A stretch of 58,386 bases of DNA, the filler included, from Malassezia furfur (taxonomy: Eukaryota), in the NCBI GenBank assembly GCA_052055015.1. It is 4 parts of 4 records of this genome, joined end to end, with 100 filler letters (N's around TTAATTAATTAA, not from the genome) between each part and the next. Parts side by side here need not be neighbours in the genome. Positions count along the whole stretch, not along the records: positions 1 to 14,586 come from JBQJIT010000284.1; 3 more parts are not named here. One strand, 5' to 3'. Position 1 is the first letter of the stretch; each line of letters opens with the position of its first letter. The notes below the pieces were generated by a model. The model did no database searches. It saw nothing but the letters and a program-made list of their open reading frames with translations, and was not told the DNA's origin. The position numbers and the translations under genes are program-made. Below are positions 3,401 to 20,240 of this stretch, piece by piece.

Positions 3401-5814
3401 ATGGCGACGGGAGGAGCGGACAAGAAATCCGCGCCGGCGCTGCCGGCGTCGAATGAGTAGGTCGGCGCACTGACGCAGCATCCACGCGACGTGGGAATTT
3501 CTCGAGGGCGGCATCGAGGTGATGGTACGCACGCCCGCCGGCTCACACAGATGGCCCGCCTCACCGAGGGCATGTCGTATGAACGCTACATGCAGCTCTA
3601 CACCGCCGCCTACAACTACTGTATCAGCAGTGGCATGGGTGGCGCGAGCGGCATCGCAGCCGGCGCTCACCTTGTTGGTGGCGAGCTGTACTCGCGCATC
3701 GCACACTACTTCCAGCAGCACCTTCGTGCCACATTGACGCAGCTCGAGTCGCTCTCGGGCGAGGCGCTGCTGCGCTACTATGCCGCCGAGTGGGAGCGGT
3801 ACACGAACGGCGCCAACTTTGTGCACCGCCTTCTCATCTATCTCAACCGCCATTGGGTGAAGCACGAGCGCGAAGAGGGCCGCACGGATGTGTATACCAT
3901 TTATACGGTATGTGGCTCTGCTGACCCAGCTTGCGTTGATCCAGTGGAAGCGATTCGTGTTTGCGCCGCTGCAGACACACCGAAAGCTCACAAATGCGGT
4001 GCTGGACCAAATCCGCATCCAGCGCGATGGTGGCGTGATCCAGTCGAGCCTGCTCAAGACGGTGCTCGACAGTTTCGTGTCTCTGGGCATCGATGACACA
4101 GACGCCACGCGGCTCAACCTGGATGTGTACCGCACCGAGTTCCAACAGGCGTTCCTGGAGACGACTATGGAATACTACAAGGCCGAAAGCGCCGCGTTTG
4201 TCGCACAGAACTCGGTCAACGACTACATGCGCAAGGCCGAGGCGCGGCTCATGGAGGAAGACGACCGCGTCGAGCTCTATTTGCAGCCGTCGACACGCGT
4301 GCCGCTCGGCGAGGTGTGCCGCGAGCAGCTGGTGACGAGCCACAGCGCGCTGCTCTGGGGCCAGTTCAAGACGCTGCTCGAGAACGAAATGAGTGCGGAT
4401 TTGAGCCGGATGTATGCACTGCTGGTGCAGATCCCCCATGGCCTCGACCCGCTGCGCGAGCAGTTTGAGGCGCACGTCAAGGCCGAGGGTCTCGACTCGG
4501 TGGCACGCACCGTCGAGGAGTCGCCGGAGCAGGTGGACCCTGCGCGCTACGTCCAGTCGCTGCTGCGTGTGTATGACCACAACATGCAGACGATCGAGAC
4601 GTCGTTCCAGTCGGAGGCCGGCATGATTGCGGCGCTCGACAAGGCGTGTCGCGTGTTTATCAACCAGAACCAGGCGACCGGCAAGTCGGCGAGCAAGAGC
4701 CCCGAGCTGCTCGCCAAGTACGTCGACGGCCTGCTCAAGAAGAGCAACAAGGGCGCCGAGGAGGCTTCGCTCGAGACGTCGCTGGACCAGGCCATGGTGG
4801 TGTTCAAGTACATCGAGGACCGCGACCTCTTCCAAAAGTTCTACTCCAAGTTCCTTGCGCGCCGCCTGGTGACGTTCGCCTCGGCGTCGTCCGACGCAGA
4901 AGAGAGCATGATCTCTAAGCTGAAGGAGGTGTGCGGCTTCGAGTACACGCACAAGCTCCAGCGCATGTTTACCGAAGTCGGTCTGTGCCGCGAGCTCAAC
5001 GAGCGCTTCCGCGAGGCGGAGGCGAACCGCGGGTCGGGCGACGACATCGACTTTTACTCGCTGGTGCTTGCCAACGGCATCTGGCCGCTGCAGGCGCCGT
5101 CGACCGACTTTAGTGTCCCCACCGAGCTCCAAGGGCTCTACGAGCGGTTCAAGGAGTTTTACGGCGCGCAGCACTCGCGCCGCGTCCTGACGTGGCTGTG
5201 GCACCTGTCGTCGAACGACGTGCATGCAAACTACCTGCCGCGCAAGCACATCTTCCAGACGTCTACATACCAATGCGCAGTCCTCTTGCTCTTCAACACA
5301 CACAGCGTCCTGACGTTTGACGAGATCGCAGCGGCGACGCGGCTCGAGGCCGCTACGCTCAAGGCGGCGCTGCTGCCGCTCGTCAAGAGCAAGGTGCTCC
5401 ACGAGCTCGACGACTCCTACTCACTCAACCTGGGTGCGTACATGAAACTGACCCAGACTTCAAATCGAAAAAGGTGCGCGTCAACCTGCAAATTCCGGTG
5501 CGTGCCGAGCAAAAGGCCGAGTCCACCGAGGTAATGAAGACGGTGGAGGAGGATCGCAAGATGCTGCTGCAGGCGACCATTGTGCGGTATGTGTGCATCC
5601 TGACCCAGTATCATGAAGGCGCGCAAGACGCTCAAGCACAACCTGCTCCTCCCCGAGGTCATCACGCAGGTCCAGTCGCGCTTCCAGCCCAAGGTGCCGG
5701 ACATCAAGAAAGCGATCGACGCCCTGATCGAGCGCGAGTTCCTCCAGCGCGTCGAGGGGGAGAAGGATGTGTACGTGTGTTCATGCTCACGCCAGATATG
5801 CGTATGTCGCCTAA
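3401..5814 (+). CDS. CUL1: Cullin-1 (Cdc53), SCF scaffold, 6 mini-introns
   Basis: Introns 3457-3478, 3525-3550, 3908-3929, 5434-5456, 5587-5608, 5771-5795 restore [43 protein letters not shown] and the neddylation motif QATIVRIMKARK. Confidence 0.95.
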
Positions 5815-9185: not shown

Positions 9186-11297
9186 CTAGCTGCCCAACTT
9201 GCGGCTCTTGACCGTGTTGATCGAGATACCGCTCTTCTCGCCCTGATAGCCGCCCTGGAGCGCGCTCTGACCGCCCTTGTACACGGCACGCGTGCTCGAC
9301 AGGCGCTTGTTGGCCCGGTCGAACTTCATGCGGCGCTTCACACGGGGGTTGCGGATGCTCTTGGGCCGATGCGGCGTCAGACCCTTGTTCTTCTCGATCG
9401 TGCGGTCGATGAGGCGATGCTCGCCATCGCCCACTGTCTCGTCGTCATACACACGGGACGCAAGGCGCTCCTGATCGTACTCTTCCTTCTTCTGCGCTTT
9501 CTTTGCACGTTTGTTGGAGCTGATCAGGTCGTAGTAGGCCGCGTCGTCTTCGTCGCCACCGGTGGCCTCGTCCGCATCCGGCTTCGCGCCGCCACCCATG
9601 ACAGCGTTCCGGTCGCGCCAGTCGCTCTCGCCCCACTCGGTATCGTTCAAGTCCGTGTCCAGGTGCTGGGGCTGCATCTTAGCCAGCTTGTTCGTCTTGG
9701 CCGCAGCGACCGCCTCGCGGCTGCGCCGCCGGTCGCGGTAGGGGATATCTGCATCGCCCTCGAGCTTGTTTTGCTTCTGCTTGGATGCCACGTCGGCCGC
9801 CGCATCCGCGTGGAACTGGGTGAGCCGCTTGCGCTGCGACTTTTCTTGGGCGTCGACCGAGCGCATCTGTGTCGGCTCGCCGTAGGCATCGGCGCTCTCG
9901 AGGGGCATCGACGCCGTGCGCTTTGGCGCACGCGGCACATCGGCACCAACGTCGGCAACCGTTGCAAGCGGCGCCGGCGCCGGCGGCTCTGCACGCGACT
10001 CGGCACGGCGCTTAGCTTTCGTCTTCTTGCGCTTCGGCACCGAGGCCTCGCTCGCTGCCGGTGCAGACGACACATTCTGGTTCTCCTTCTCGTCCTCAAT
10101 CAAGTCATCCACCTCGCCGGGCTCCAGCTCGCCAAGTTCCTCGTACGCCATGTCCTCGTCGGTCGGCGGGCCCATAATACCGGCCATCTCGCGCTCGTCG
10201 CTGCTGCTCGGTGCGTCCTCGGGGTCAAACAGACCGAGCGCCTTCATCTCCACCAGCGCTTTTTTGAACTGGCTCAGGCGCTCCATCACAGGGTGCTCGA
10301 GCAGCCGTTGGGGCTCGGCGGCCCACGCGGGCGTCGATGCAAGCTGGAAGAAGAAGGCGAGCTGCATGGCATAGGCGGAGAGCGTCTGGTAGTACAGGTG
10401 TGCAATCTCGGCAATCGACCGTTCGCCGTGTTTGGTGACTTCGTCCATGTAAGCCTCCGCCTCGGGAAGCTGCTGGAGGACGTCGCCAAATTCATCGACA
10501 AGAGCTAGCACAATCGGCGCGTGCGTGCGCAGACGTGCAAGCAGCTCTTCTGGCGTCGCAGATGGTGCAGCACTGGTACCTTCAGTGTCGCCATCAAGCT
10601 CGCGCTTGCGCCGCGCACGCGCAGCGGCACTCTGCTCGTCGGCATTGATGAGCGCTTCCGTTGCATCGATGCTCTCGAGACCAAAGTCATCGTCGCCCAT
10701 GCCCGCACGACTCAGGCGCTGGAGACGGATAGCCTCGTTGGTCTCGAGTTCGTGCGCTTTTTCCTCATCAATGTCCGAGTCGGACTCAAGGTCCTTTTCT
10801 GTGTTGCCGCTGTAGTAGGCACGCTTGTTGGCGCCCCATCCATGCGGCTCTTCGTCTGAGCCCTCTTCCGAAACCTCTTCATCCGAATCATGGGCATCGT
10901 CACGCGGCGCGCGCCGTCGCACCTGCTGCATGATCTCTTCGGGGATATGCATGGAACGGTAGCGTTCGTCATCGTCCTCGAAACGCGTCTCGTCGTCGTC
11001 CTCGTCTTCCTCACCTGCTCCCTCTTCTCCCTCCTCGTCCTCATCTTCGTCCTCTTCTGAATCACTGTCGTCGTCACGCTGGGATTGGGCGAGAGAAAGC
11101 ACTTCACGGTCGTTCGCGCCAAAGTCTTCCTCGTCTTCGTCCGGCTCGTACTGCGCATCGTCCAGCAGAATTTTGTCTCGCGCAGCATCGAAGCGTTCGA
11201 CGTCATCCATCGGGATTTCATCGCGCGTTTCCATACGCTTGCCGCCGCCGCGTTTACTCGGCACGCGGCCGCGCGCACGCATGCTGCCCTTGGCCAT
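9186..11297 (-). CDS. SAS10: Sas10/Utp3 SSU processome component
   Basis: Acidic N-terminus, WGANKRAYY, HPVMERL, C-terminal IEKNKGLTPHRPKSIRNPRVKRRMKF...YQGEKSGI. Confidence 0.93.
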   Translation of the reverse strand: MAKGSMRARGRVPSKRGGGKRMETRDEIPMDDVERFDAARDKILLDDAQYEPDEDEEDFGANDREVLSLAQSQRDDDSDSEEDEDEDEEGEEGAGEEDEDDDETRFEDDDERYRSMHIPEEIMQQVRRRAPRDDAHDSDEEVSEEGSDEEPHGWGANKRAYYSGNTEKDLESDSDIDEEKAHELETNEAIRLQRLSRAGMGDDDFGLESIDATEALINADEQSAAARARRKRELDGDTEGTSAAPSATPEELLARLRTHAPIVLALVDEFGDVLQQLPEAEAYMDEVTKHGERSIAEIAHLYYQTLSAYAMQLAFFFQLASTPAWAAEPQRLLEHPVMERLSQFKKALVEMKALGLFDPEDAPSSSDEREMAGIMGPPTDEDMAYEELGELEPGEVDDLIEDEKENQNVSSAPAASEASVPKRKKTKAKRRAESRAEPPAPAPLATVADVGADVPRAPKRTASMPLESADAYGEPTQMRSVDAQEKSQRKRLTQFHADAAADVASKQKQNKLEGDADIPYRDRRRSREAVAAAKTNKLAKMQPQHLDTDLNDTEWGESDWRDRNAVMGGGAKPDADEATGGDEDDAAYYDLISSNKRAKKAQKKEEYDQERLASRVYDDETVGDGEHRLIDRTIEKNKGLTPHRPKSIRNPRVKRRMKFDRANKRLSSTRAVYKGGQSALQGGYQGEKSGISINTVKSRKLGS

Positions 11298-11427
11298 TGT
11301 CGTGCAGGAGCGAAAGCGCCTGGCCTACGCCCACGTGATAGTCCAAAAAAAATTTGGGCCTTACTAACCAGGAGGCGGCGCTTTGTCCAGATTTTGACCA
11401 GGGACATCAATCTGTTGCCGGAAGAGG
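11298..11427. promoter_or_regulatory. 130-bp bidirectional promoter of two ribosome-biogenesis genes (SAS10/FCF2)
   Basis: Head-to-head ATGs; CACGTG at 11332-11337 and RRPE-like AAAAAAAATTT at 11345-11355. Confidence 0.6.
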
Positions 11428-12243
11428 ATGGTGCTATCCGATTCCGATGATGATGATCAGCTCTTGAATGCATCGCGCCAAGCATACAAATCCAGTGTCA
11501 ATGGGTCGAAGGCTTCTAGCTCACATGAGGCGTTCACCGATGGCACGGATCTAGTTACCTTTGATACCGAGATACCCCCTGCCACCCCAGCGCGGAAGTC
11601 GTCGCGGTCGATCAAGAGCGCGGGAAAGAAGAAAGCAGGCGATGCCCCCGAGGTGGCCGCTTCTCTCGAAGCCATTGAACGATCGGGCGTGACGCGGACA
11701 AAGAAGCCGAGCAAGCGCGAGATCCAAGAGGTACGACATCGCCATCGCTCACACACAGTACCGATCGAAAACTGCCGGACCTGGGTGGTACAACATGCCG
11801 GCCTTTCCTGGTGCGCACTATACCAAAAAAGACGCGCGCAGGGAGGGTGGCAAGGCGAGCTACACGGGTGGTGATGCGCGTGCTGCGACCGAGAAGGAGA
11901 TGCGGCGCCAAGTGACGGCGATCCGGTTGCGCAACGCTTTGGACCCTACGCGTTTCTACCGTGGTGGCTCTGGCACCGGTGCTGACAAGGGCATGCCTGC
12001 TTACGCGCAGCTGGGTACAATCGTGGGTGGTGGCCTGGAGCCGAAATCGATTGTGCCACGCAAGCAGCGTGCGGACAGCGTTGTGGGCGAGTTGGTGAAC
12101 GATGCACGTTCCATTGCCTATTCCAAGAAAAAATTCAATGAGGTACGTTCCCCGTGTCCTAACGGCAGCTGCAAGCCAAGCGCATGGCGCTGGCCAAACA
12201 GGGCCGCTCCAAGCCGCCAGGGCGGAGGCGCCGGCGATCGTAG
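11428..12243 (+). CDS. FCF2: Fcf2 pre-rRNA processing protein
   Basis: Introns 11731-11758 and 12143-12168 give KTAGPGWYNMP, IRLRNALDPTRFY, YAQLGTIV, YSKKKFNELQ. Confidence 0.9.
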
Positions 12244-12281
12244 ATCCCCTCGCCCCCACGTGTTGACCACGTGCCGGGCAC

Positions 12282-12326
12282 GAGGAAAAACCAGGGTATA
12301 TCTGGTTTTTCCTCTTTTTTTTTTTT
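12282..12326. repeat. Perfect 13-bp inverted repeat with GGTATAT spacer followed by T12
   Basis: GAGGAAAAACCAG (12282-12294) / CTGGTTTTTCCTC (12302-12314), T run 12315-12326. Confidence 0.9.
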
Positions 12327-12330
12327 CTTT

Positions 12331-12605
12331 GCGGGCGGCAGACACCGGTAAAGTGCCTGTGGCTTTGCAAAGCCGTTTTCGCGCAGCGGTCTTATTGGCA
12401 GTGGCTGTGCAAAGCGAGACACCCGTGTCTCCCCGCCCCTAAGGCTAGACAAGCGGCGTGCGAAGCGTACCGGCCAAGGTACCTACGGGCTCAACGCAAC
12501 GGGAAACGACTCCCGTTCCAGCCTTGACATTACGGTGCTCGACGTGAAAGCACATCCAGTCCTTCATTGGTCTTGGATGGCTGTTGAGTGGCCGCGTAGC
12601 GCTGC
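12331..12605 (+). ncRNA. Candidate structured RNA (5' leader of EPL1 or independent ncRNA), family unrecognised
   Basis: At least nine abutting stems, several with G-U pairs that work only on the + strand; no motif of U1-U6, SRP, RNase P/MRP or TPP riboswitch recognised. Confidence 0.45.
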
Positions 12606-14586
12606 ATGAGTGTTCAAGCGTCTTCACCGGCGCCTGCGCACAATCGTGCGGCAGCGGCCGGTTCTTCCTCCCCATTCCCGCCCCTTCATATGTCTAGCAG
12701 CCGTATGCGGAACAAGAAGCTGTCCTACAAGCAGAAAAGTGCGTATCATGACGGGCCCGCCGGTGGCGCTACAAATATGTGGAATTATGCATGTTTACGG
12801 CGTGCCGGTTGGCTTACTTCCCAGGCGATGAGCAGGCTGACCGGCAGTATGTATCCAGCGCGGCTCGCTACAGGGCGCAGGCAATGCGCTCGTGAATGGT
12901 GTGGCACCTGAGTTTGAGAGCAACGAGAACCAACAGGATGAAACGTTTGGTGTTGACTCGCACGAGCTCACGGAGCACCACCTGCAAGCGGCGCTGTCGT
13001 CCCACCAGCTCGAGGCGACCCAGACGTCGACGAGCGGCGAGACGAAGCGTGCGTACCACATCCCCACCCCCAAGACGGTCGAAGTGCTGAGTGTCAAGCA
13101 GTACAACGACCTGTACCCTCCCAATTCCTACTCGGATCCCGTCACCTATGTACGATATTCGGATACAGTCGAGAGCAACACGCGCGGTGCACCCTACTGT
13201 CTCGACGAGGACGACCAAGGCTGGCTCGACAAGCACAACCAGAAGGCCAAGAGCGAGCTGGAGCAGGCGCTGAAAGGTGTCAAGGGCGCGCAGGCACAGG
13301 CGAAAGAACACGACCTCGTGCAGCAGCACCCCGACAAGTACCTCGTGATCGACGAGGACCAGTTTGAGACGGTCATGTATGTGTTTGAGCGTGCGACGTG
13401 CGAGCACCACCCGCTGCTCGAGCTCGACTTTGCCAAGGTGCCGACACTCGACGACCTGCTTCCCGAATTGGACGAGACGTCGGCTGCCGCCGAGCTGGCC
13501 CTGCCCGAGCTGCCGCCGTACCGTGCGCGGCCGACGGATGCGCTCGACGGCAAGCCGGTCAATGGCAAGCTCGCGCCGAAGGGCACTGCTGCGAAAAAGG
13601 GCGACGCGGCCGCGCCGGTGTGGAGCGCTGCAAACCCCTTTCGGCACCTGTCGCTGCTGAAGCCGTGCGCGCGCGTCATCTACCCGTGGTGGCGGCTGCG
13701 GCGCCAGGCGCGCGACGGCAAGCCGATCGTGCCGAGTCTCAACTTTGACGAGAGCAACGACAGTGACCCGTACGTGTGTTTCCGCCGGCGCGAGGTGAAG
13801 ACGGCGCGCAAGACGCGCAAGACCGATACCCTCCAGCTCGAGAAGCTGGTGCGGCTCCGCTCGGAGCTGATGCAAGCCACGCGTCTGTTCGAGATGGTGG
13901 CGCAGCGCGAGCAGCTCAAGGAGGAGCAGGTGCGCGAGGCGCACGCATGCTGGACGCAGGCGCACCGCCTGCTCCAGGTCAAGCTCGAGTACGGCTTCAC
14001 GTCGAGCGTCAAGGGCGCCGAGGACGAGAACCTCATCTTTGGGGTGCAGCCGGACCCGACGGCGCCCGTGCCGAACGTCGCGGCGGCCGCGCATGCGACG
14101 CAGCTCAAGAAGAAGCGCAAGGCGGACGAGGCGGCTGCGACCCCCACGACGCTCAAGCTGCGCCGCCCCAAGCCCGGCGAGGCCGAGACGGCGAACGCGG
14201 GCAAGGTGCATGCGACCGACTCGGCGACGAACGGCATCGGCGCTGCGCTGCTGGAGCGCGTCAAGGCCGTGCAGGCGTACATCGAGCGCGAGACGCAGTG
14301 GCACCAGCAGACCGAGGCGGGCTTCGAAGACTTGACCGACGCGGCATTCCAGCCGCTCGCCGCGCCCCTGTCGCAGCGTGCCTTCCGCCCCGTGCAGTCC
14401 GACACGCACGACACCCAGTTCTGGTCGAACCACCCGCTCGCGCGGCTTGGGCGCCAGCCGTGCTTCCGCCGGCGCGTCGGGCGTGGCGGGCGTGTGTATT
14501 TGGACCGCCGCCCGCTCACGGTGAGCCCCGCGCCGGCGAGTGTGCTCGCCTGGCCACGGGGCCCGCACTGCTGGCCGCCGGCGCCG
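12606..14586 (+). CDS. EPL1: Enhancer of polycomb-like protein Epl1 (NuA4), truncated by scaffold gap; alternative start at 12690
   Basis: Intron 12739-12847 joins SRMRNKKLSYKQK to ICIQRG; GVDSHELTEHHLQAAL, HIPTP, YCLDEDDQGWL, DPYVCFRRREVK, FRRRVGRGGRVYLDRR. Confidence 0.93.
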
Positions 14587-18998: not shown

Positions 18999-20240
18999 AT
19001 GGTCTCCAAAATTCCTGGCATGTCGCACCTGCAGAACTTCACGACGAAGACCCCGTCGAAGAAGATGCAGTGCGGCGATGTCACTGAGGGTCTTAAAAAC
19101 GACCTTATGATCCGCGCGGCGCGTGGCGAAAAGACGGAGCGCACGCCGGTGTGGATTATGCGCCAGGCCGGGCGCTACCTGCCCGAGTTCCGCGAGATGC
19201 GCGCGGAGCACGAGTTCTTCCACTGCTGCCGGACGCCGGAGCTCGCGTCGGAGATCACGCTGCAGCCCATCCGCCGCTACGAGGGCCTGCTCGACGGTGC
19301 GGTGATTTTCTCCGACATTCTGGTGGTGCCACAGGCGATGGGCCTCGAGGTGGAAATGGTGCCCGGCAAGGGCCCGAGCTTCCCGCAGCCGCTCACCTCG
19401 CCCAAGGACATGTCGCGCCTGCGCAAGGTCGACGTCGACAAGGACCTCGGCTACGTCCTGGAGGCCATCAAGCTCACGCGCCACAAGCTCAAGGGCCGCG
19501 TGCCCGTGATCGGCTTCTGTGGTGCGCCGTGGACGCTGATGGCCTACATGATCGAGGGCGGCGGCTCGAAGAGCTGGGACAAGGCGAAGAAATGGCTGTT
19601 CGACTACCCCAACGAGAGCCGGGTGCTGCTCGAGCGCATCGCGTCGGTCTGTGCGCAGTTCCTCGTGGCGCAGATCCGCGCCGGTGCGCAGCTCGTGCAG
19701 GTGTTTGACTCGTGGGCCGGCGAGCTGTCCCCGCAGGACTTCCGCACGTTTGCGCTGCCCTACCTCCACTCCATCGCCGTCGAGGTGCGCGACTCGCTCG
19801 CGTGCATCTCGACGTGTGCGCCGCCGATGATCGTCTTCGCGAAGGGCGCGCTCGGCCACTCGCTTCCCGAGATCATCCGCTCGGGCTACGACGTGGTTGC
19901 GCTCGACTACTCCGTCGAGCCGGTGGTCGCGCGCAAGGCCGTCGAGATGTGCCAGCCGTCCTCGAGCAAGTTTGCGACGTCCGCAGGCAACCGCGAGGCA
20001 GGTCACCCCATTGCGCTGCAGGGCAACCTGGACCCTGCCGTGCTCTACGCCGAGCCGCGCGTGATTGAGCAGCGCGTCGAGGAGATGCTGCGCGGCAAGT
20101 CGGGCTTTGGCGGGAGCGGCGCGTACATCTGCAACCTCGGCCACGGCATCACGCCGGGTGTCGACCCCGAAAAGGTCGGCGTTTTCCTGCGTGCCGTGCG
20201 CCGCATTTCGCGTGAGATCCAGGCCGAGTCGGATTCGTGA
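18999..20240 (+). CDS. HEM12: Uroporphyrinogen decarboxylase (copy A)
   Basis: PVWIMRQAGRYLPE, IFSDILVVPQAMG, GFCGAPWTLMAYMIEGGGS, NLGHGI. Confidence 0.97.
   Translation: MVSKIPGMSHLQNFTTKTPSKKMQCGDVTEGLKNDLMIRAARGEKTERTPVWIMRQAGRYLPEFREMRAEHEFFHCCRTPELASEITLQPIRRYEGLLDGAVIFSDILVVPQAMGLEVEMVPGKGPSFPQPLTSPKDMSRLRKVDVDKDLGYVLEAIKLTRHKLKGRVPVIGFCGAPWTLMAYMIEGGGSKSWDKAKKWLFDYPNESRVLLERIASVCAQFLVAQIRAGAQLVQVFDSWAGELSPQDFRTFALPYLHSIAVEVRDSLACISTCAPPMIVFAKGALGHSLPEIIRSGYDVVALDYSVEPVVARKAVEMCQPSSSKFATSAGNREAGHPIALQGNLDPAVLYAEPRVIEQRVEEMLRGKSGFGGSGAYICNLGHGITPGVDPEKVGVFLRAVRRISREIQAESDS

Follow-up and report, generated by a model that had tools for sequence, protein, structure and literature searches.

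In Malassezia furfur, EPL1, the gene for the NuA4 scaffold Epl1, lies downstream of FCF2 in the 58,386-nt stretch of assembled DNA analysed here (GCA_052055015.1; hereafter the window). A first-pass annotation had proposed that most of the spacer between the two genes, at 12331–12605, encodes an unrecognised, densely structured RNA. We find that a 62-nt hairpin on the + strand at 12533–12594, which we call hairpin D, is conserved in position, sequence and fold immediately upstream of the EPL1 start codon, and we consider it reasonably probable that EPL1 mRNA carries this AUG-proximal hairpin as an element that holds back or regulates translation by way of a factor reading its apex. Because both genes lie on the + strand, their 362-nt spacer must contain the 3′ end of FCF2, the EPL1 promoter and the EPL1 leader, and we take it to be the ordinary spacer of a tandem gene pair, in which these parts would follow one another in that order. 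The hairpin would be transcribed within a long, AUG-poor leader, whose last ∼75 nt would fold in the mRNA into a conserved hairpin of ∼60 nt with its base 11–12 nt before the AUG. A stem of -23 to -27 kcal/mol near the AUG may slow the scanning 43S complex, and so set or limit Epl1 synthesis, by an effect of the size known for such stems in yeasts. The invariant apex may then be a docking site for a trans-acting factor, which would make the block adjustable.

We compared the window with the orthologous FCF2–EPL1 spacers of two Malassezia-like metagenome loci, L001 and L002 (48–50% GC), in which hairpin D occupies 1650–1709 and 4825–4883 respectively (values for the three species are given below in the order window, L001, L002). 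Relative to the EPL1 ATG, the hairpin spans -73 to -12, -72 to -13 and -71 to -13, its base thus standing 11–12 nt before the AUG in all three species. The lower stem is invariant (CGG-U-GCUC/GAGU-NN-CCG), the internal loop has unrelated sequences that differ in all three species, and the inner stem, of 9–12 pairs, varies in sequence by species with its pairing kept. At the apex is a 16-nt block, AGUCCUUCAUUGGUCU (AGTCCTTCATTGGTCT; 12558–12573, + strand), that is identical in the three species. When each species was folded separately, the minimum free energy (MFE) structure was the same hairpin, with z-scores of -3.26, -4.62 and -7.04 (2, 0 and 0 of 200 shuffles as good), and the RNAalifold consensus contains 23 pairs. 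Folding energies are -26.4, -22.9 and -27.1 kcal/mol on the + strand, compared with -17.0, -17.0 and -16.5 kcal/mol on the - strand; the + strand is therefore the more stable by 6–10 kcal/mol, and the - strand also beats its shuffles (z -1.9, -2.9 and -4.2). Two small hairpins had been annotated in this region. The ATCCAG/TTGGAT helix forms part of the inner stem of hairpin D, and the GTGCT/AGCAC hairpin is an alternative to the lower stem that in all three species is less stable, by 9–16 kcal/mol, than the long hairpin sharing its bases.

The three lineages are about equidistant, with pairwise Epl1 identities of 59–64% over the first 500 residues of exon 2. Their spacers measure 362, 343 and 375 nt, and three landmarks, CACGTG, a GC block and hairpin D, are collinear in all of them. 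Invariant columns stay at a background of 2–5 in 20 across most of the spacer and rise in three places: at the CACGTG box, at the GC block and across the final ∼80 nt, where the hairpin apex reaches the maximum of 17 in 20. Nucleotide identity is 73–80% in hairpin D as against 54–62%, by global alignment, in the rest of the spacer, and the former exceeds the amino-acid identity of Epl1. The comparison set came from scanning metagenomes with 23 aligned Malassezia Epl1 proteins, which gave at least 22 fungal loci, with at least two Malassezia-like loci among the matches listed. No further orthologues were found in a single-protein metagenome scan, nor in genome and viral contig collections searched by protein and by DNA pattern; an 85-residue translation across the leader, compared with the protein collection in case of spurious open reading frame calls elsewhere, gave no candidate. 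A covariance model of the hairpin, run over the window and 22 loci (230,093 bases), recovered only its three founders, the three other hits having E-values of 7.5–8.6.

Might this be chance pairing in GC-rich DNA, with the conserved blocks being unrelated short motifs? The window, from a GC-rich Malassezia species, is 64.6% GC, and for the whole of 12331–12605 the fold is marginal against chance: the z-score is -1.97 on the + strand, where 7 of 200 dinucleotide shuffles do as well, and -0.92 on the - strand, where 35 of 200 do, and the stretch lies 1.7 standard deviations below its GC-regressed expectation when set against 456 other 275-nt windows, 4.4% of which have a lower residual. The covariation tests described below are not significant, and the upstream part of the annotated structure, domain 1, fits chance pairing in being unconserved and in folding better on the - strand. 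Hairpin D does not behave in this way. Its strongest z-scores (-4.6 and -7.0) are those of L001 and L002, which are at 48–50% GC. GC-corrected windows as extreme, counted elsewhere on both strands, number 66 of 16,490, 17 of 4,616 and 3 of 6,970, so that the hairpin ranks within the top 0.04–0.4% of local folds, and does so at the orthologous place in all three loci. Moreover, non-coding identity of 73–80% against ∼60% for Epl1 is not neutral. We regard chance pairing as an improbable account of the region. The claim of dense structure over 12331–12605 thus holds, beyond chance, for the sub-region 12533–12594; for the stretch as a whole the z-score is weak, and structural conservation is present in only part of it.

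Pair statistics were taken from an alignment of the three sequences fitted to the structure. In this alignment, 92.8% of 69 pair cells hold standard pairs, compared with 25–45% when the partners are slid. Nine of 14 changes at variable pairs keep a pair (two of them double changes; binomial P 0.008 at 30% chance and 0.04 at 37.5%), a rough tally given that the alignment leans toward the structure. When 5′ and 3′ halves were swapped between species, the mean energy was -20.7 kcal/mol, compared with -25.5 kcal/mol for the native pairs of halves. We conclude that, judged from sequence, the structure of hairpin D is conserved, strand-specific and improbable by chance, and that its covariation, in three sequences, is suggestive.

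Several points weigh against the proposal that hairpin D acts in the mRNA. Only two pairs have changed on both sides, and 222 of 500 shuffles do as well; the covariation score (0.246 vs 0.196; 75 of 500 shuffles as good) is not significant. Two of the six half swaps are as stable as native, and shared sequence accounts for much of the shared fold. The comparison rests on three sequences, and in the other 20 fungal loci, which are more distant, the covariance model had no hit ahead of EPL1. The EPL1 transcription start could fall downstream of the hairpin. Finally, the - strand of the apex makes a good CCAAT box, and conservation at the level of DNA could explain the invariant block.

The last of these points belongs to a broader alternative, in which the conserved blocks are promoter elements: a CCAAT box bound by the CCAAT-binding complex (HapB/C/E) among flanking sites for other factors, with the GC block and the E-box as further sites, a transcription start less than ∼30 nt from the ATG, and the hairpin as a by-product. 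CACGTG and the end of the GC block, CCCCT, presumably resemble factor sites, and we have counted them on this side, together with the statistical weakness of the covariation and the better-than-shuffled folding of the - strand of the hairpin. The apex heptamer CCAATGA (12564–12570, - strand), invariant in the three species, fits the consensus CCAATVR, and the invariant block is about as large as the footprint of ∼13 nt downstream of CCAAT that one account gives for the complex (PMC7144946). The complementarity of the invariant flanks, CGGUGCUC and GAGUNNCCG, is left unexplained, as is the fact that the species-specific arms beside the apex stay complementary; in L001 these arms are paired through three U-G pairs, which would be A-C mismatches on the other strand. 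Promoter elements likewise leave unexplained the + strand advantage of 6–10 kcal/mol, the fixed 11–12 nt to the AUG and ATG-free zones of 270–290 nt. A CCAAT box needs no complementary flanking arms, strand-specific G-U pairs or fixed distance from an AUG, and the site here would be just ∼36–40 nt from the ATG. We regard promoter elements as the main rival to an RNA hairpin, with a minor, though appreciable, probability; the two readings are compatible.

If hairpin D does act in the mRNA, its apex offers a lead to the factor. On the + strand the apex reads AGU-CCUU-CAUU, and the octamer CCUUCAUU within it (12561–12568; from 1677 in L001 and 4851 in L002) fits CNYUCNYU, described as the core motif of Ssd1 sites, for which an older ‘SEE’ motif is AKUCAUUCCUU (PMC8934651). 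The match was noticed after the fact. CNYUCNYU occurs once in each of the three spacers, counting either strand, and always at the apex, and the 11-mer that includes the AKU prefix, AGUCCUUCAUU, occurs once in the 58-kb window, both strands included. Because the apex carries CCUUCAUU, the most concrete candidate for the factor is the Ssd1-type pseudonuclease of Malassezia: an inactive Ssd1/Dis3L2 homologue with conserved cold-shock domains is described for all sequenced Malassezia (PMC8097288), and Ssd1 at sites in the 5′ untranslated region (UTR) is described as repressing protein output without a change in mRNA level (PMC8934651; preprint 10.64898/2026.08.03.741543). As at Ssd1 sites such as that of Saccharomyces cerevisiae SUN4, the apex is a tandem CNYU core with an AKU prefix like that of the SEE motif, positions 1 and 5 of its core are C and positions 7 and 8 are U, the ones that the published co-crystal account gives as read base-specifically, and it lies near a start codon in a probable 5′UTR, in a genus with an inactive Ssd1-type homologue.

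The apex differs from Ssd1 sites in other respects, which count against this candidate. It holds one copy of the core per spacer, whereas strong Ssd1 targets carry several. The CCAACU upstream element is absent (CCAACT has no occurrence in the three spacers, on either strand), and in the accounts cited this element was not found outside Saccharomycetes (PMC8934651; preprint 10.64898/2026.08.03.741543). The putative core sits on top of a long hairpin and is predicted to be partly paired, unlike the splayed single strand described for the crystal: in all three MFE structures its CC pairs with GG six bases downstream, leaving UUCAUU open. This closure is weak, consisting of two pairs, and it is invariant and so beyond the reach of covariation. 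The target is also of another kind, EPL1 being a chromatin gene and not a cell-wall gene. The Malassezia pseudonuclease could be recruited to the single CNYUCNYU on the tip of the hairpin, which in this lineage would replace the upstream element, and repress Epl1 translation; we put this forward as a doubtful, if specific, possibility.

Hairpin D would be part of the mRNA only if the EPL1 leader is long, and the distribution of ATG is of interest here. The last 288 nt before the EPL1 start in L001 and the last 273 nt in L002 are free of ATG, with ∼4 expected in each, and the 5′ parts of the same spacers contain three and six respectively. The window spacer has one ATG in 362 nt, with ∼4.5 expected. 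Runs of T lie upstream of the hairpin at -291, -225 and -225 from the ATG, and the scarcity of ATG, as a feature of sequence, supports a long leader that would start near them. The single ATG of the window opens a 10-codon upstream open reading frame (uORF; 12577–12609, + strand). The AUG of this uORF falls within the 3′ arm of the hairpin, and its stop codon, TGA at 12607–12609, overlaps the EPL1 ATG at 12606. Control of EPL1 by termination and reinitiation at this uORF would make use of that overlap, yet the upstream AUG is present in one of the three species (from the GC block to the start codon, L001 and L002 are free of ATG), and by our own reading the frame is not conserved beyond the invariant nucleotides. 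We think control by this uORF very unlikely; it would at most be a species-specific addition. A peptide-coding reading of the block was rejected as well, since by the same reading L001 and L002 conserve neither start codon nor frame.

A separate small non-coding RNA gene between FCF2 and EPL1, whether for a small nucleolar RNA (snoRNA), a small nuclear RNA (snRNA) or a new class, had been raised as one meaning of the structure. The spacer is longer than the two neighbouring ones, the GC block and the hairpin bound a conserved structured span of ∼170 nt, and T-runs lie upstream, all of which such a gene would accommodate. However, hairpin D ends so close to the AUG, at 11–12 nt in each of the three species, that a 3′ end and an EPL1 promoter would not fit between them; no second copy was found in the 230 kb searched; and Rfam has no match in the window, L001 or L002. 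We hold a separate RNA gene to be most improbable. The statement that no snRNA, SRP, RNase P/MRP, tRNA or TPP-riboswitch motif is recognisable here was borne out by a covariance-model search of Rfam 15, which gave nothing at gathering scores in the whole 58-kb window. Between 11500 and 13500 there were six matches at E ≤ 10, the best with E 1.4 and all at ≤ 21 bits, compared with gathering scores of 47–90; the orthologous spacers gave one match at E 8.8 in L001 and none in L002. We rejected a snoRNA or snRNA also on motif grounds, as the three spacers contain no box C (RTGATGA, or even TGATG), no Sm-like site and, in the 11–12 nt that follow the hairpin, no ACA. The box D word CTGA is absent from the window spacer and has non-conserved hits in L001 and L002 only. 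The window sequence UCGACGU...CUUCAU resembles the 5′ end of U3 snoRNA, and this candidate was dropped, since L001 and L002 lack the sequence and the Rfam U3 models are unmatched.

Upstream of hairpin D, a second part of the leader may be conserved. Domain 2 (12439–12532, + strand) is a three-way junction with P1 pairing 12440–12446 to 12520–12526 and P3, AACGGGA/UCCCGUU, at 12498–12517; the AAGGCU/AGCCUU closure and the P3 hairpin that had been annotated are recovered in the MFE structure of 12439–12532. The same topology appears in all three MFE structures, with closing helices AAGGCU/AGCCUU, AGGCG/CGCCU and GUGG/CUAC, and the 3′ hairpin reads ACGGGA/UCCCGU in the window and UAGGGA/UCCCUA in L001 and L002, with an A-U to C-G change in P3. 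The z-scores are -2.5, -2.0 and -0.45, and the topology class, which was defined after the data had been seen, occurs in 59, 44 and 29 of 300 shuffles. We consider domain 2 a possible second conserved part of the leader.

Domain 1 (12331–12440, + strand), annotated as a five-way junction, is a different matter. Every helix that had been listed for the region is present where it was placed, CAGACAC/GTGCCTG having one A-C mismatch, and the GGGCGG/CCGCCC closure with its internal hairpins is recovered in the MFE structure (ViennaRNA) of 12331–12440. The fold is real in silico, without conservation or preference for the + strand. G-U pairs had been taken to point to the + strand, and this is contradicted in domain 1, where the - strand folds better (z -2.85, compared with -2.11 on the + strand). 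The corresponding stretches of L001 and L002 are no more stable than their shuffles (z -0.67 and +0.37) and sequence conservation is at background, so that neither the riboswitch-like architecture of the junction nor its sequence is conserved in the two orthologous leaders. Nothing points to either a riboswitch or an internal ribosome entry site, both of which had been suggested. We take domain 1 most likely to be DNA of the promoter or early leader that pairs by chance; it is not part of the element. The proposal of a cis-regulatory EPL1 leader accordingly stands for 12533–12594, where position, sequence and fold are kept and the + strand is the stabler, possibly extends to 12439–12532, and fails for domain 1.

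Two other conserved features lie in the spacer upstream of hairpin D. Two CACGTG E-boxes at 12257–12273 coincide with a peak of three-way invariant columns at 12257–12281 and are likely to be a promoter element; measured from the EPL1 ATG, CACGTG stands at -349 and -338 in the window, -321 in L001 and -335 in L002. The GC block, CCCGTGTCTCCCCGCCCCT at 12422–12440, has the form CCAGTGACT(A)CCCGCCCCT in L001 and L002 and the consensus CCMGTGWCT(M)CCCGCCCCT, and lies at -184, -180 and -174 from the ATG, 93–101 nt upstream of hairpin D in all three species. It may belong to the promoter or else form the 5′ border of the conserved leader.

Between the E-boxes and domain 1, a perfect 13-bp inverted repeat, GAGGAAAAACCAG/CTGGTTTTTCCTC with a 7-nt loop (12282–12314), is followed by a run of 12 T, the whole spanning 12282–12326 and beginning ∼40 nt past the FCF2 stop codon. 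It is the most extreme local fold of the 58-kb window on both strands, and it drives the strongest local folding of the whole window, at 12126–12530 (z -3.5 on both strands). In L001 and L002 a hairpin followed by a T5 run lies at about -225 from the EPL1 ATG, with a sequence unrelated to the repeat of the window. We assume that the repeat is probably a DNA-level feature or one of the 3′ end or promoter, outside the conserved hairpin; with its T-run it could signal the 3′ end of FCF2, act in the promoter as a nucleosome-free element or bind a dimer.

The FCF2 stop codon, TAG at 12241–12243 on the + strand, marks the left end of the spacer; the last FCF2 exon (12169–12243) was read from the sequence and has orthologous exons in L001 and L002, and the Fcf2 domain (Pfam) matches at 11795–12145 (E 3e-16). 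EPL1 exon 1 runs from the ATG at 12606 to 12738 on the + strand and is followed by intron 1 (12739–12847) and by exon 2 from 12848. Its start codon is backed by the conserved N-terminus MSVQASSPAPAH, also found in the proteins annotated in M. yamatoensis and M. cuniculi; exon 1 matches L001 and L002 in tblastn with E 1e-10 to 4e-11, and the KQK|ICIQRG exon junction, as read on the DNA, agrees with the protein P0001 of the collection. The encoded Epl1 is 100% identical to one entry of the protein collection, and 68%, 60% and 57% identical to the proteins of M. yamatoensis, M. equina and M. cuniculi respectively. The annotated spacer length of 362 nt is confirmed by these limits. That most spacers in the area are 0–250 nt long holds for the two upstream spacers (∼22 and ∼100 nt), the only ones checked.

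The upstream neighbours of FCF2 are SAS10/UTP3, on the - strand, and a WD40 gene, with spacers of ∼100 and ∼22 nt. SAS10/UTP3 (9186–11321) and FCF2 (∼11400–12243) are divergent, ∼100 nt apart, and both are small-subunit processome genes, an arrangement that suggests a shared bidirectional promoter. The tandem order FCF2–EPL1 is kept in L001 (924–1853) and L002 (4057–5027), and also in the distant fungal loci L014 (3570–5522) and L005 (1832–3760), where Epl1 is 31–36% identical over the matched stretch. In one public gene model of M. equina (P0023, 949 residues) the Fcf2 and Epl1 domains are fused in one protein and the spacer is skipped. Elsewhere in the window, ARAGORN places a tRNA-like gene of 90 nt, undetermined in type and with four bases (actc) in its anticodon, at 19879–19968, where Rfam gives no tRNA at the gathering score; the call may be false, or the tRNA may contain an intron.

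Local folds also occur within EPL1 itself. A near-copy of the apex word lies in exon 1 at 12683–12695 (CCTTCATATGTCT, compared with CCTTCATTGGTCT), where the orthologues read CTTCATATGAC and form a small hairpin (z -3.0 in L002 and +0.7 in the window). Intron 1 of L001 (∼1900–1960) and L002 (5060–5140) contains a long AT-rich hairpin (z -6.0 in L002), to which the window intron has nothing comparable (z 0.05). Translated as ...IWGFNFF..., the sequence of this hairpin recurs at the false N-termini of the proteins P0010 and P0012, and must therefore be common to at least four lineages. The start of exon 2 (coding PEFESSDNQQDS.FGVDSHE) forms a strong hairpin at 2030–2105 in L001 and 5210–5285 in L002 (z -6.2 and -4.8), in which synonymous changes preserve the pairs; the same codons of the window do not fold (z +0.4). 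We rejected all three as parts of the element on the basis of their z-scores in the window (+0.74 for exon 1, +0.05 for intron 1 and +0.40 for exon 2).

Of the known regulatory hairpins, the iron-responsive element is similar in being a 5′-leader stem-loop with a variable stem and an invariant loop that hinders the small subunit when bound by protein, as hairpin D would. It differs in its loop, a CAGUGN hexaloop with a C bulge as opposed to 12–13 nt here, and in its position by the cap, whereas hairpin D, as far as can be told, lies by the AUG; hairpin D has no link to iron and no match to the Rfam model of the iron-responsive element. Comparative screens of fungi have described motifs that are, like hairpin D, conserved UTR structures recognised by comparing species (Li & Breaker, 2017, PMC5640933; Gao, Jones & Rivas, 2021, PMC8216456). 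The main texts of these two papers contain no occurrence of EPL1, NuA4 or Malassezia and mention no targets in Basidiomycota, and the 2021 screen is described there as covering Ascomycota only. As far as its sequence indicates, hairpin D is a new candidate for a protein-gated 5′UTR stem-loop, absent from Rfam.

For annotation of such genomes, the region offers a calibration for similar calls, in that two thirds of what was first noted as densely structured RNA read as chance pairing in GC-rich promoter DNA. To our knowledge, Basidiomycota have yielded hardly any conserved cis-regulatory RNA structures. If hairpin D is real, it would be a compact example, open to experiment, of a core chromatin regulator controlled at translation in a genus of skin commensals, and possibly a handle on the binding targets of the Ssd1-like pseudonuclease of Malassezia. 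Should that protein indeed read the apex, this would be the first structured Ssd1 site outside Ascomycota, bound by a pseudonuclease that evolved independently in Malassezia, and through the NuA4 scaffold Epl1 it would connect histone acetylation with Cbk1/RAM, the morphogenesis pathway by which Ssd1 is controlled in other fungi.

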